DNA from: Lentisphaerota bacterium
GTDB taxonomy: Bacteria; Verrucomicrobiota; Kiritimatiellia; RFP12; UBA3636
Direction: 5' to 3'
NCBI GenBank assembly: GCA_012514445.1
Contig: JAAZAI010000037.1
Span: forward strand, 1-27,936
DNA length: 27,936 nucleotides
Positions 21,602 to 25,251 of the stretch are shown here, in pieces (the first letter of the stretch is position 1; each line of letters opens with the position of its first letter). A model generated the notes under the pieces. That model saw only the letters and a list, made by a program, of their open reading frames with translations, was not told the origin of the DNA and did not search any database. The position numbers were made by a program, and so were the translations under genes.

Positions 21602-22480
21602 ATGAAGAAGTGGATGTATGGAATATCGGCGGCCGCGGCCGCAATGGTGGTCGTCGGATGTGCGCATGTGCAGTCGCCGGAGGCGAAGAAGCCGGCCGGG
21701 CCGCTCAAGGTGCTGGCCGTGGGCAACAGTTTCTCCAACAACGCCACCCGGCAGCTCCCGGCGCTGGCCACCGCCGCAGGCAAGGACTTGAAGGTCGTCC
21801 GGGCGTCGATCGGCGGGTGCGACTTCGAACGACATGTGCGCCATGCGGAGGCGTATGCGGCCGATCCGGAATCGAAGGAAGGCCGGCCCTATGGCGGCAA
21901 GAGCCTGCAGGAGATGCTCAAGAGCGATGTCTGGGACGTGGTGACGATCCAGCAGGTGAGCCACAAGAGCTTCAAGCCCGAGACCTTCCATCCGCATGCG
22001 GACAAGCTGATCGCCATCATCCGCGACCACGCGCCCCAGGCGGAGATCGTCGTCCACCAGACCTGGGCCTACCGCGACGACCACAAGTTCTGGGGCAATA
22101 CGAACTTCAACACCGACGTCATGTACGCGGGACTCCGCAAGACCTACGACGACTTCGCGCGGGAAGCCGGATTCCGGCTGATTCCCAGCGGGGACGCCAT
22201 GGAGGCGGCCCGGCGCGATGCCGAGTGGGGGCCTTACTTCGCCGGCGAACCGCCCATGGCCCGCGCCGAGAAGGCGTTGCACGTCAACGACGCCTATCAC
22301 GCGAACGTGAAGGGCGAATACCTCCAGGGCTGCGTCTGGCTCGCCTTCCTCTTCAACGAGAAGACGTCCGGCAACACCTTCGTCCCCGAGGGCATGACGG
22401 CGGACGAAGCGGCCATCCTCCAGCGCATCGCCGACGAGGTCGTGATCGGGGGCGGTCGCCCCGAGCCGAAGACGAAGTAG
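21602..22480 (+). CDS. DUF4886/SGNH-like lipoprotein
   Basis: Lipobox VVGC, KVLAVGNSFS, IGGC, WDVVTIQQVSH, HQTWAY, YHAN. Confidence 0.7.
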   Translation: MKKWMYGISAAAAAMVVVGCAHVQSPEAKKPAGPLKVLAVGNSFSNNATRQLPALATAAGKDLKVVRASIGGCDFERHVRHAEAYAADPESKEGRPYGGKSLQEMLKSDVWDVVTIQQVSHKSFKPETFHPHADKLIAIIRDHAPQAEIVVHQTWAYRDDHKFWGNTNFNTDVMYAGLRKTYDDFAREAGFRLIPSGDAMEAARRDAEWGPYFAGEPPMARAEKALHVNDAYHANVKGEYLQGCVWLAFLFNEKTSGNTFVPEGMTADEAAILQRIADEVVIGGGRPEPKTK

Positions 22481-22511
22481 AGCGACCTGCTGGAAAGCTG
22501 AGGCGATCGCA

Positions 22512-22570
22512 TCGCCACGTCGCGGATCAGGTGCGGCTATTTGCCGTCGCCCTCATCTGGCTTGTTCTGC
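22512..22570 (-). mobile_element. Integron attC-like site 1 (59 bp, R' altered)
   Basis: GCAGAAC (R'') AAGCC AGATGAGG (L'') GCGACGGC-AAATA-GCCGCA CCTGATC (L') CGCGAC GTGGCGA (R'; GTG instead of GTT). Confidence 0.7.
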
Positions 22571-22882
22571 GATCTTGGTTCACCTTTCAGATATCCTAAT
22601 GAGGCGAGGAAGCGATCCATTTCGATTACCGTCTTGGTGTAGTTCTCATTGACTTGGGTCTCCGCCATTCCAGCCTCCGCCGAAAAAGAAGACGATGGCC
22701 GGGCGGTTGTCGGATTGCCTGTGTTCCTTGGAGTCGAAGATGTGAAGCATGAGCTTCGTCTCGCCAATCGTTTTGTACACCACGGACTGGTCTGGCGCGA
22801 TGCCCTTGACTTCCTGCGAAGATGCCGATGTTGCGCAGACGGACGCACACGTTGTAAGGGCAAGATATCTGATTGTGTCCAC
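22537..22882 (-). pseudogene. Alpha/beta hydrolase (esterase) with internal deletion and frameshift
   Basis: Signal peptide plus PDQSVVYKTIG..RPAIVFFFGGGWNGGDPSQ* is joined out of frame at about 22648 to the typical C-terminus ENYTKTVIEMDRFLASLGYLKGEP. The GxSxG core is absent. Confidence 0.8.
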
Positions 22883-22948
22883 TTGATCCGTCAAGTTCTT
22901 CTCGATCACAGCGCCGACCTTCGGCAAGTCATTCTGAAGGCGGTTCGG

Positions 22949-22978
22949 ACTATAGGCCAGCCTTCCCATCCTCGTCAA
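22949..22978 (-). promoter_or_regulatory. sigma70-type promoter inside the hydrolase cassette
   Basis: TTGACG-N18-TATAGT, ending 66 nt upstream of the GTG start. Confidence 0.6.
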
Positions 22979-23103
22979 CAAGAAAGCTTAAAAATCCGCG
23001 GAACTGCGGAACCACAAGCGCCTCGTCGCCCCCATCGCCGCCGAGCCGGACTGCGAGAAGCAGCGCATGCGGTGGGAGAGTCTGGAGGGCCGGAAGTCGG
23101 AGA

Positions 23104-23160
23104 GGGAAGCGTTGGGTGCGGGCGCCGCTCTCAGCGGTAGCCTGTAACGCCGTGTTTGCC
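23104..23160 (-). mobile_element. Integron attC-like site 2 (57 bp, R' altered)
   Basis: GGCAAAC (R'') ACGGC GTTACAGG (L'') CTACCGCT-GAG-AGCGGCG CCCGCAC (L') CCAAC GCTTCCC (R'; GCT instead of GTT). Starts at the stop codon of the DUF6429 gene. Confidence 0.7.
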
Positions 23161-23411
23161 TAATTCTTGACTTCCATCCCGAAATGTTTCAGAAAAAGGG
23201 CTTCGGCTTTTTGAAACCTGTCTTCAGATAGGCATAAAGACTTAGTTTTTCCTTTTGGATCAGAAATAAGACCTTTTTCATGCAATCGATCCATGGTGTC
23301 CCAATCGAACGATTTCCAAGCCCGCGCTCCATATCCTTTTTCTCTGTGACAGACGACGAGATAAAGAAGAGCCAAGGTCATTTCGTCTACTTTGTCTTTG
23401 TCGAATTCCAT
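23160..23411 (-). CDS. DUF6429 family protein (cassette gene)
   Basis: MEFDKDKVDEMTLALLYL..RAWKSFDWDTMDRLHEKGLISDPKGKTKS matches the DUF6429 pattern. SD GAGGAG 8 nt before ATG 23411. AT-rich. Confidence 0.85.
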   Translation of the reverse strand: MEFDKDKVDEMTLALLYLVVCHREKGYGARAWKSFDWDTMDRLHEKGLISDPKGKTKSLCLSEDRFQKAEALFLKHFGMEVKN

Positions 23412-23451
23412 GTTCATGTCTCCTCAAAGGGCGAACAGGGTCTTGTGCTCC

Positions 23452-23682
23452 TCAGTCTTTCCTCAAGAACTCGGATTCCACCCTGATGTCGTTTCCGATC
23501 CCTCCAAACATGGGATCAATCAGTTCAGTCACATCGAGCACGCACAGACCGTTCCCATCGATCTCGGTCACGCGAAAGCGCTTGCCCAGGCAAGCACGGA
23601 TAACAGACCGCGAATCGGACGGCATGCTACTGACCCACTCAGGCATGCGGGTGAACGTTACGATATCTCCTGCCTTAATCAT
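23452..23682 (-). CDS. Small hypothetical protein, 76 aa, cassette-like
   Basis: MIKAGDIVTFTRMPEW..CLGKRFRVTEIDGNG..IRVESEFL: compact SH3-like beta pattern, AT-rich, co-oriented with the cassette genes. Confidence 0.65.
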   Translation of the reverse strand: MIKAGDIVTFTRMPEWVSSMPSDSRSVIRACLGKRFRVTEIDGNGLCVLDVTELIDPMFGGIGNDIRVESEFLRKD

Positions 23683-23850
23683 CTTCCGGTACAACCGTGG
23701 TCTTGAGCCTTCTTTGCACAATGGCTCCCTTGAGTAAAACGATCGTGAGTGTAGACTTCATCCCAGATCCAGTCAAGTCCAGAAAACATCTATTCAGTAT
23801 TGGGTCAGTCGCCGGGATGAGATCAGAGTCGGGGACGGGATTCCCCCATT

Positions 23851-23884
23851 GTTGTAATCTGGAAATCCTGTTCAAGATTATAAT
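23851..23884. repeat. 34-bp imperfect palindrome, copy 1
   Basis: GTTGTAATCTGGA-aatcctgt-TCAAGATTATAAT. Confidence 0.8.
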
Positions 23885-23986
23885 AAATGCTCGACGTAAT
23901 CGGTCTGTCGCCGGGGGTGGGCAGGTTCTCGCGAGGGTTCCGGAAACAAGACCCGGCCGCCACTTTGCACGGCGGTGTGCAGGGCG

Positions 23987-24051
23987 CTGGGACCGCGAGG
24001 CTCCGCACTCGCATTTTTCTACACGGCGGGTGCAGAGCCCCGCGTTCCCAG
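23987..24051. repeat. REP-like inverted doublet
   Basis: 26-bp arms 23987-24012 and 24026-24051 are reverse complements at 22/26 positions, with a 13-nt spacer. Confidence 0.75.
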
Positions 24052-24137
24052 GGGGCTCGACCTCGGCGGCTTCTTTCTCGGGGTGCTGTAGCCTCGCTCA
24101 GAGCGCGGCGCGAGTGACGTCGACGACACGCACGGCG

Positions 24138-24175
24138 GTTGTAATCTTGTCTCGAAGCATGTTCAAAATTATAAT
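24138..24175. repeat. 38-bp imperfect palindrome, copy 2, overlapping a promoter
   Basis: GTTGTAATCTTGT-ctcgaagcatgt-TCAAAATTATAAT. Confidence 0.8.
24147..24175 (+). promoter_or_regulatory. sigma70-type promoter facing the metallophosphoesterase gene
   Basis: TTGTCT-N17-TATAAT. Confidence 0.55.
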
Positions 24176-24357
24176 CCGGTGCGGCGGTGGCACTCGCGTG
24201 GTTCCTGTAATCTTGTCGAAATCGTGGAGATCTCCCGGTCGACATCGCGCCAGGATGCCGACACCGGCGACCGATTACTGCGCGCGCTTCCATTCTGGAC
24301 GGAACGCGGATTGAAATGGTATTGTTGAGTCGTTCTTTCCCTTCGAGGCTTCGATTC

Positions 24358-25251
24358 ATGATGAACAGACATGTCCTCTTGCTCGCGGCGTCCGCCGCGA
24401 TGTTCATGGGTTGCACGGGGCCGCGCGTCGGCGGCGATGGCGTCGGGCCGATCACGTTCGTGCAGATCTCGGATTCGCATTACGGAAATCCGCTTCACGC
24501 CTACCGCTTCCGCCAGGCCGCCGAGAAGATCAACGCGCTGCCTTTCGACGTGGCCGTCGTCGTGCATACCGGCGACTTCGCTTCGGACAACCTCCACATC
24601 GAGACGACCGGAGCCGGCGTGTCGAACCTGCTGTCGCTCATCGAGAAGCCGCTGCTCTGCGTGCCGGGGAATCACGATCTGCTCGCGAAGGGCGTCAACG
24701 CCGAGGCGCGGCTGGCGAAGTGCGTCGACGTCTATACGCGCTACATCGGCCCGCTGGGATCGGTCTACGAGACGAACGGCGTCGTGTTCATCACCGTCTA
24801 CACCGAACCCCTCCGGGAGCAGTCCCCTTCGGTCGCCGTGGCGGGCTTCGATCCGCTCTCCTGGCTCGAAGCTCAACTGGCGAAGGCCGGCGGCAAGCCG
24901 GTGTTCGTCTTCACCCACACGCCCGACGGCGAGGACTTCTACAACAACGAAGTCCACCCCGGGTGGCCGGAGCCGAACCGGAGCGCCTGGCGCCGCGCGC
25001 TGGCAGGGGGCAACGTCAAGGCGATCATCGCCGGGCACTACCACCGCGACGAATTGCAGCAGGACGAAGACGGCATTCCGCTTCACGTGGGCAACGCCAT
25101 CGCGGACTTCTGGGGCCGCCAGGCCTCCTTCCGCATCTACACCTACGAAGACGGCCGGCTGTCATTCCGGACCGTCTACATCGACGATCCCCCGCGGGAG
25201 ATCAATCTCAACCCCGACGGCATGATGGGGCCGCCCACGGTCGCCGAGTAG
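24358..25251 (+). CDS. Calcineurin-like metallophosphoesterase lipoprotein
   Basis: Lipobox FMGC, motifs SDSH, HTGD, PGNHD, FTH, GHYH. Confidence 0.88.
   Translation: MMNRHVLLLAASAAMFMGCTGPRVGGDGVGPITFVQISDSHYGNPLHAYRFRQAAEKINALPFDVAVVVHTGDFASDNLHIETTGAGVSNLLSLIEKPLLCVPGNHDLLAKGVNAEARLAKCVDVYTRYIGPLGSVYETNGVVFITVYTEPLREQSPSVAVAGFDPLSWLEAQLAKAGGKPVFVFTHTPDGEDFYNNEVHPGWPEPNRSAWRRALAGGNVKAIIAGHYHRDELQQDEDGIPLHVGNAIADFWGRQASFRIYTYEDGRLSFRTVYIDDPPREINLNPDGMMGPPTVAE

Follow-up and report, generated by a model that had tools for sequence, protein, structure and literature searches.

The window analyzed in this study is a stretch of 27,936 nucleotides that forms contig C240 (JAAZAI010000037.1) of the Lentisphaerota bacterium genome G000 (GCA_012514445.1), an assembly of 652 contigs and 3.27 Mb that is estimated to be 92% complete. 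It contains an island of approximately 1.3 kb (about 22510-23790) with a low GC content, which was 42-55% compared with 65-75% in the flanks. On the minus strand, the island reads in the order attI-like head, orphan gene p89, DUF6429 cassette, 90-nt relic and esterase pseudogene; the p89, DUF6429 and esterase open reading frames (ORFs) are co-oriented, and all three lie behind the promoter of the head. A preliminary description of this DNA had placed two integron cassettes here, the esterase and DUF6429 genes, each followed by an attC-like site (attC1 and attC2, respectively), and had proposed that they were inserted independently at secondary sites and locked in, with no integrase present. 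Judged by homology, the DUF6429 gene was found to be a real former integron cassette. For the island as a whole, we lean slightly towards a different history, in which an integrase-less cassette array decayed and its genes were fixed by this decay. The features of the island are listed below, with crossover points marked by an arrow.

23695..23786, minus strand: attI-like head of approximately 92 nt, recognized by seven conserved copies and a promoter; it ends in ...ACGG↓TT, with the G at 23695
23452..23721, minus strand: orphan gene p89, 76-89 aa, the first gene behind the head
23430..23436, minus strand: 5' boundary of the DUF6429 cassette, G↓TTCGCC, where homology with the sister cassette starts
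23160..23417, minus strand: DUF6429 gene, 85 aa, the former cassette ORF (Pfam PF20008, E 4e-27)
23098..23161, minus strand: decayed attC of the DUF6429 cassette (attC2), placed by homology and model alignment
23013..23106, plus strand: GC-rich relic of approximately 90 nt, with copies in C558 and C385 of G000 and in C91 and C283 of genome G001
22995..23012, minus strand: tandem GTTCCGC-A-GTTCCGC, previously taken as the 5' boundary of the esterase cassette; it is also a hairpin
22537..22981, minus strand: alpha/beta-hydrolase (esterase) pseudogene, identified by PDB and homologue alignments
22513..22571, minus strand: attC1 as previously proposed, with an R''-like GCAGAAC, a spacer ending ...GAC, and a G (22520) followed by TGGCGA

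The DUF6429 gene and its cassette homologue

Two metagenome contigs, L033 and L034, were found to hold the DUF6429 gene, with a DNA identity of 86% over window positions 23436..23150. L033 carries an array with six attCs (28-79 bits) and small co-oriented genes that include a RelB/YafQ pair. In this array, the R' box opening each cassette was the perfect complement of the cassette's own R'' for all five cassettes located behind an attC; the R'/R'' pairs were GTTGGGGC/GCCCCAAC, GTTCGCC/GGCGAAC, GTTCGGC/GCCGAAC, GTTGGCC/GGCCAAC and GTTGTGTGC/GCACACAAC. The similarity between the window and L033 started precisely with GTTCGCC, the heptamer that serves in L033 as R' of the attC before this cassette, and the DNA upstream of this point was unrelated. 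From there, the similarity spanned the gene, R'' with its overlapping stop codon (TAG-GCRAAC) and L'', and faded thereafter. Seven DUF6429 genes of other phyla had neither flank in common with the window. This exact boundary and the R''/L'' homology with L033, which set the window gene apart from those of other phyla, indicate that it descends from the cassette form. The left boundary at 23436 had therefore been placed correctly in the preliminary description, as the sister-cassette homology begins there. Of the two cassettes it named, the DUF6429 gene was borne out by the same boundaries in a real attC array, and no such counterpart in a bona fide array was found for the esterase or for p89.

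The family is widespread across phyla, and the idea that DUF6429 is a typical cassette gene was rejected: an attC match was present at only 2 of 80 genomic loci and adjoined the gene at neither.

The two attC-like sites and the esterase segment

Every motif quoted in the preliminary description was found on the minus strand: R'' GCAGAAC (22571..22565) and G↓TGGCGA (22520..22514) for attC1, R'' GGCAAAC (23161..23155) and G↓CTTCCC (23111..23105) for attC2, GTTCCGC at 23004..22998 and again at 23012..23006, and GTTCGCC at 23436..23430. Both genes are indeed in the same orientation and look foreign by the GC content given above. As described, the G↓TT start of each unit complements its own R'' at six of seven positions (GTTCGCC with GGCAAAC, and GTTCCGC with GCAGAAC). 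The frequency of such pairs was determined by counting ORFs with GTTNNNN at most 60 nt upstream and a complementary NNNNAAC at most 45 nt from the stop codon, with at most one mismatch. The chance rate was 3.2% (306 of the 9,487 ORFs of G000), and perfect pairs occurred at 0.34%. At this rate per ORF, two adjacent matches are unlikely to arise by chance; two adjacent ORFs would both carry a pair in approximately 0.1% of cases, if the two are independent. The DUF6429 pair is independently validated by the sister cassette of L033. We regard the motif pair of the esterase as suggestive and short of proof.

The claim that the two sites form attC-like folds did not hold. Relative to dinucleotide shuffles, the exact spans of attC1 (58 nt) and attC2 (57 nt) were no stabler, with fold z-scores of -0.76 and -0.13, respectively, while the true attCs of the L033 array folded at z-scores of -2.3 to -7.9. 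Two attC covariance models were built, R1 from 5 sites of the L033 array and R2 from 17 sites that include G000 sites. With filters off, neither model reported attC1 or attC2 across the whole window, and no significant attC was present anywhere in the window with R1 or R2. When the search was restricted to 1.4 kb, attC2 was the top match yet reached only 4.8 bits (E 1.6), and attC1 was unreported, that is, below 2 bits. As positive controls, R1 scored the L033 array's own sites at 53-79 bits and the G000 sites at 12-47 bits; overall, real attCs scored 22-79 bits with the two models. An attC that is cut at its R' G by a contig end served as a natural control and still scored 28 bits, so the models are not blind to sites without the R' TT. 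The preliminary description had staked its sites on a signal in such models, and the scores speak against it: neither site is a model-detectable attC.

These negative fold and covariance results at both sites would fit a reading by pure chance, in which the motifs are accidental and the region has no integron origin. However, the homologous cassette in a real array has the exact boundaries of the window gene, and the head, described below, acts as a cassette junction in several genomes; we consider pure chance to be very improbable.

In attC2, R'' and the DUF6429 stop codon overlap, and L'' GGCGTT-AC-AGGC (GGCGTTACAGGC) pairs with L' GCC..AACGCT. This L-box pairing covaries, being GGCGTT...AACGCT in the window and GGCAT...ATGCC in L033, and the model alignment retained the L-box pairs and left the R box broken. 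No R' was present at the expected spacing; its expected start, 3 nt past L', reads CTCTCC and contains no G. By the homology- and model-based alignment, the G at 23111, previously assigned to the R' of attC2, is part of L'. Two other layouts were tried and rejected. An attC of approximately 150 nt across 23161..22998 was ruled out by its fold z-score of +0.64, and an attC2 split by the 90-nt relic, with GTTCCGC at 23012 as R', is a plausible layout, but 25 in-silico joins gave z-scores of only -1.4 to +0.9.

At attC1, the spacing from GAC to G equals that of GAC-GTT in real attCs, and the R'', which is the 6/7 complement of the GTTCCGC upstream of the esterase ORF, sits within the ORF tail. 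This site may at best be a heavily decayed attC of the esterase segment. We also observed an 11-nt direct repeat bracketing this segment, CGCCACGTCGC at 22513-22523 and CGCCTCGTCGC at 23020-23030, with one base different; the 90-nt relic family begins with the 11-mer CGCCACGTCGC, which at 22513-22523 overlaps the R' proposed for attC1.

The esterase gene is broken into an N-terminal piece (22981..22649, in an ORF of 22981..22646) and a C-terminal piece in another frame (22647..22540). The PDB esterase 7bfn matched ORF residues 67-111, and ORF residues 1-111 aligned to residues 1-78 of a 285-aa esterase from genome G137. The C-terminal piece corresponds to the last approximately 25 residues of the homologue (...DRFLASLGYLKGEP), and approximately 176 codons were deleted, including the region of the catalytic residues (the GGSAGG nucleophile region in the intact homologue). 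With the two pieces joined by X as the query, the nearest non-self representative showed 49% identity. None of five esterase-homologue loci of the order (L028-L032) had flanking attCs.

The DNA between the two units (23013-23106) is, judged by its copies, a remnant that another mobile element left on the opposite strand, and not conserved chromosome. In L156 (G001:C283), a large serine recombinase of 394 aa is followed by a 129-aa ORF whose 3' end corresponds to this sequence, and other copies lie upstream of a Fic-domain gene (L151, C558). The relic family, which belongs to a module of the serine recombinase and the 129-aa protein with its LAPDIQEAIL motif, was located at 1495-3073 in L156, at 1254-2838 in G000:C558 and in L151 (G001:C91).

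The attI-like head and the surroundings of the island

Seven full copies of the head were found, namely those of the window, C370 and C617 in G000, three in genome G009 and one in genome G019; partial copies lie on C299, which also has attCs, and on C355 of G000. The copy number per genome is three in G009 and at least three full plus two partial in G000, an assembly that is fragmentary and estimated to be 5% contaminated, so that its contigs may stem from more than one organism. In each of the seven full copies, conservation extends from TTTTCTGGACTTGACTG to ...AACACTG↓TT (ACGG↓TT in the window), and the copies diverge right after the TT. Downstream of four copies, attCs are present in the same orientation (21-44 bits). 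The R'' of the first of these complements the bases after the G exactly in three copies (TTCGCA/TGCGAA, TTCGACA/TGTCGAA and TTAGACGGC/GCCGTCTAA) and with one mismatch in the fourth. The promoter, found by a promoter scan, is TTGACT-17-TACACT in the window (23776..23748) and TTGACT-17-TAnACT across the copies. A ribosome-binding site, AAGGGAG, and a TTG start (23721) occupy 23719-23732 on the minus strand, and the conserved binding site with a TTG or GTG start is found at the same position in all seven copies; in the window, p89 gains 13 residues from this in-frame TTG inside the head. Such a translated leader in the head seems to recall ORF-11 of class 1 attI1.

A conserved left arm up to G↓TT with variable cassettes to the right is the arrangement of an attI site, and it is present in the head. 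In these comparisons, the head behaves as a cassette junction, and we describe it as a putative cassette promoter (Pc) plus attI, as it behaves like one. A conserved attC resembling the Vibrio cholerae repeat was ruled out as its identity: for stretches of approximately 120 nt at three copies, the folding energy was no better than -9 to -10 kcal/mol, and a long hairpin was absent.

An integrase remnant was observed beside one head copy. In G019:C101 (L140), a 65-aa ORF on the minus strand (415-612) lies divergently, 100 nt upstream of the head, and aligns with the C-terminal end of full-length IntI from most relatives at 55-59% identity. G000:C617 matches this locus at 93% identity over its positions 1-248, and the contig ends just before the IntI remnant. 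No TIGR02249 match was found in the window, and the best match in the 92% complete G000 assembly reached 79.6 bits against a cut-off of 265, which upholds the earlier statement that no integrase is present, for the window and the assembled G000 alike. With no adjacent intI, the island is not a complete integron. Among 151 genomes of the order, 21 encode an IntI protein above the curated cut-off, one of them being G001 of the same genus (364 bits).

The search for attC sites in the genome, which the preliminary description had suggested, located them on five other contigs of G000: C147 (288-350, 662-738, 1560-1622), C299 (2619-2695, 3037-3095), C357, C479 and C617 (652-766). These attC-bearing low-GC islets contain small genes, have no integrase and are scattered among GC-rich native genes; on C299 and C617, toxin-antitoxin-like pairs (RelE/ParE-like, PIN-like and HicAB-like) were recognized by eye.

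For p89, the only homologues found were near-identical proteins of the same species. The p89 and DUF6429 ORFs are separated by 34 nt, with 16 nt from the p89 stop codon to G↓TTCGCC, and no GGTACAAC-like R'' for a p89 cassette was found anywhere in the island. The possibility that p89 conceals an attC near its 3' end was ruled out (fold z-scores of 0.0 and 0.4, no model match).

To the left, the island is bordered by a DUF4886/GDSL-like gene on the plus strand that ends at 22480. To the right, a miniature inverted-repeat transposable element (MITE) is followed by a metallophosphoesterase gene on the plus strand (24316-25251). One protein encoded in the flanks is 81% identical to a protein that carries the label "Kiritimatiellia bacterium" at NCBI. 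Scans of the window with Rfam and for tRNAs gave no matches. In G001, these two flanking genes are approximately 180 bp apart; the alignment of the orthologous locus ends near 22505-22512 and restarts near 24265, and G001 has none of the DNA of about 22510 to about 23890.

Near-identical DNA was found in runs of at least eight studies that are labelled as wastewater, terrestrial and pig-gut metagenomes. The island itself was present at 98-100% identity in 13 further contigs and in Logan contigs of four runs from four studies. The population variants were read from contigs of runs, which hide rare variants, and on this basis the only structural variants were a deletion of 23264-23518 and an insertion at 23833/23848. 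The deletion (255-260 bp, joint 23258/23264 to 23519, 5-bp microhomology) occurred in six metagenome contigs; with the 3' end of p89 and the DUF6429 gene's 5' half gone, it fuses p89 to the DUF6429 tail. Both the deletion and the full form were present in run X4, and one additional metagenome contig was colinear with the window.

The right border of the island is rich in repeats.

23797..24284, no strand assigned: repeat-rich right border

It comprises a solo 20-mer resembling a terminal inverted repeat (TIR; 23797-23816), a palindromic promoter-like motif (23851-23884) and a MITE-like repeat of approximately 385 bp (23896-24280) with TIRs GTAATCGGTC/GACCGATTAC. The MITE-like repeat has many copies in G000 at 80-95% identity (C336, C197, C627, C337, C149, C484, C87 and others), and a miniature version of 85 bp occupies the orthologous position in G001. 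Its palindromic core of approximately 70 nt (about 23978-24050) had a summed contig depth of approximately 1000, compared with approximately 10-20 in the flanks, and was also found, partly in tandem, in other genera of the order. The promoter-like palindrome, TTGTAATCTnGAA...TTCnAGATTATAAT, is present at 23851-23884 and 24138-24175 of the window and at least nine more times in G000 (C551 twice, C151, C3, C274, C253, C210 and C518 twice). The insertion polymorphism at 23833/23848, which is 134-148 nt long and was seen in other samples, holds a related copy of it.

Decay of the island and comparison with known systems

Our slight preference is to read the island as a decayed cassette array without an integrase, whose genes were fixed by decay. 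Ordinary recombination by IntI at the head, whether at this locus or in a donor, would have taken up the cassettes to give an array of the head, p89, the DUF6429 cassette and possibly an esterase cassette, with no integrase of its own. The attC behind p89 would have been lost; the DUF6429 attC has kept R'', L'' and L' and lost R'; and the esterase has an internal deletion and a frameshift, with little more than motifs left of its putative attC. The data show that the DUF6429 gene originated as a cassette, that the head behaves as a cassette junction, that the genes have decayed and that no attC is detectable, while we infer in which order the events took place and that p89 and the esterase were cassettes. 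With the sites rotted and no integrase at hand, the genes would be fixed, and a secondary-site crossover is unnecessary. An ordinary, later decayed array is the simpler explanation, as an attI-like head lies directly upstream. The notion that the genes are locked in remains plausible, and no excision product was seen in the contigs of four runs from four studies.

Several observations weigh against this history. No attC, R'' or fold signal lies ahead of the DUF6429 cassette, where a plain array needs an attC, so a clean loss of the p89 attC must be assumed. The 90-nt relic between the attC2 remnant and the esterase requires an extra insertion and deletion, and its removal in silico yielded no significant fold. 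The esterase, for which no cassette homologue was found, has its own sigma-70-like promoter-like site (22978..22949), and the tandem GTTCCGC forms a 5-bp hairpin followed by TTTTT, which is terminator-like (scan match 23010..22995). The head was never found beside an intact intI, and the DNA beside the full-length intI genes of relatives had no similarity to the head or to other island sequence. Furthermore, the covariance models are home-made from few sites of two sources and differ from the IntegronFinder model.

Part of this evidence would suit a patchwork assembled without integrase action at the locus, in which foreign DNA with the cassette-derived DUF6429 gene and unrelated fragments, MITEs among them, were joined by illegitimate or microhomology recombination and deletions, the esterase motifs being coincidental. 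The island is a mosaic of broken pieces (the esterase remnant and the relic), a deletion with 5-bp microhomology is segregating, and the 11-nt direct repeat brackets the esterase segment and overlaps the R' of attC1. The doubled GTTCCGC can equally be a hairpin with a T-run, the esterase has its promoter-like site, and a motif pair arises by chance at 3.2% of ORFs. However, signatures of integrase-type crossover are seen in the head junction at G↓TT and in the DUF6429 boundary, which is precise to the base, the complementarity between R'' and the 5' end is satisfied by both adjacent ORFs (the 0.1% case, if independent), and all three genes are co-oriented behind the head promoter. We consider such a patchwork unlikely.

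The history given in the preliminary description, that IntI acting in trans inserted one or both cassettes by recombination between attC and non-att (secondary, attG-type) sites, with the R' core destroyed and excision prevented, also appears improbable to us. Its strongest point is the 5' junction of the DUF6429 cassette, which is base-precise against non-attC DNA, as a secondary-site event predicts. The esterase segment has GAC-G at the spacing of real attCs followed by non-TT bases, the DNA between the units is indeed non-cassette, and IntI exists in the same genus (G001); experiments have established the mechanism between attC and non-att sites, and genomes commonly contain isolated cassettes. 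Nothing at the locus demonstrates such independent capture, however. The predicted empty joints (...G+TGGCGA and ...ACCCTG+CTTCCC) were found neither in G001, which lacks the whole island together with the supposed targets, nor in the population contigs, and no joint of precise cassette loss occurred at the predicted positions in the contigs of the four runs or in the other metagenome contigs. The DNA that was to represent a chromosomal target between the units is the serine-recombinase gene relic. A complete attC up to the R' G would be expected, whereas in the homology- and model-based alignment a G is missing from the R' position of attC2, and neither site was recognized as an attC by fold or covariance model, unlike the control site that lacks only the R' TT and scores 28 bits. 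The predicted target triplets, GCT and GTG, match only two of three positions each of the published GWT non-att consensus, and the attI-like head upstream offers a canonical entry point.

Returning to the decayed array, a broader proposal may be made, which we offer tentatively and with some doubt. The head could be a portable Pc+attI module that captures cassettes separately at the G↓TT of each copy, served in trans by an integrase that is single or now lost, with the copies acting as satellite capture sites dispersed over the chromosome. The island of the window would then be a decayed satellite of such a "distributed integron".

Stranded cassettes in the form of clusters of attC sites without an integron integrase (CALINs), single attC sites without one (SALINs) and attG insertions are already known, so the mechanism put forward in the preliminary description is not new; even if the secondary-site reading were true, the locus would be a natural example of a known mechanism. 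The locus is a clear natural example of captured genes becoming permanent residents of a chromosome. The origin of one cassette can be proved to the base by its homologue, its attC appears to be caught in mid-decay, and its neighbours are eroding by deletions that still segregate in populations from wastewater, digester, soil and gut. The locus also adds the Kiritimatiellia to the groups with integron-type gene capture.

CALINs are clusters of at least two attCs within a few kb without an integrase and were described with IntegronFinder (PMC4889954, as relayed in bioRxiv 10.1101/2022.09.11.507474); they are proposed to originate from integrase loss or from rearrangement of part of an array (bioRxiv 10.1101/2022.09.11.507474). 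The island resembles them in its small co-oriented foreign genes of cassette type with no intI nearby, and other G000 contigs carry attC clusters beside toxin-antitoxin-like genes. Two of these contigs, C147 with three sites and C299 with two, are CALINs by this definition. The window, in contrast, has no significant attC with R1 or R2, and the island keeps an attI-like head with a promoter, which lies outside the definition.

SALINs and attG insertions are isolated cassettes at non-att genome sites (Loot et al., bioRxiv 10.1101/2022.09.11.507474), with aadB in RSF1010 and pRAY as classic cases, and the domestication of inserted cassettes by attC loss through replication slippage was proposed in the same work. 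The island is similar in its base-precise 5' junction on non-att DNA and in having no integrase nearby. It differs in that SALINs show one detectable attC and the island shows none, with no empty site, with triplets that deviate from GWT, and with a canonical-looking entry site upstream.

Fused cassettes that arose through attC loss are documented (PMC4670013). The p89 and DUF6429 cassettes, joined without an attC and with 34 nt between their ORFs, would be comparable to the cases given there. Those cases concern class 1 integrons with an integrase, whereas in the island the loss is presumed and there is no intact sister array.

Finally, the head was compared with the integron platform of Pc and attI. 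It appears to have the same elements, that is, a sigma-70-like promoter, a ribosome-binding site and start codon, and a core of ...AAC-ACT-G↓TT followed by varied cassettes. Unlike a platform, it is multi-copy per genome, has only a truncated intI in one informative copy, and is unlike the DNA beside the intI genes of relatives. A conserved promoter-bearing attI-like head is present at several loci per genome, and, should it prove functional, the usual view that an integron has a single capture site would need revision.

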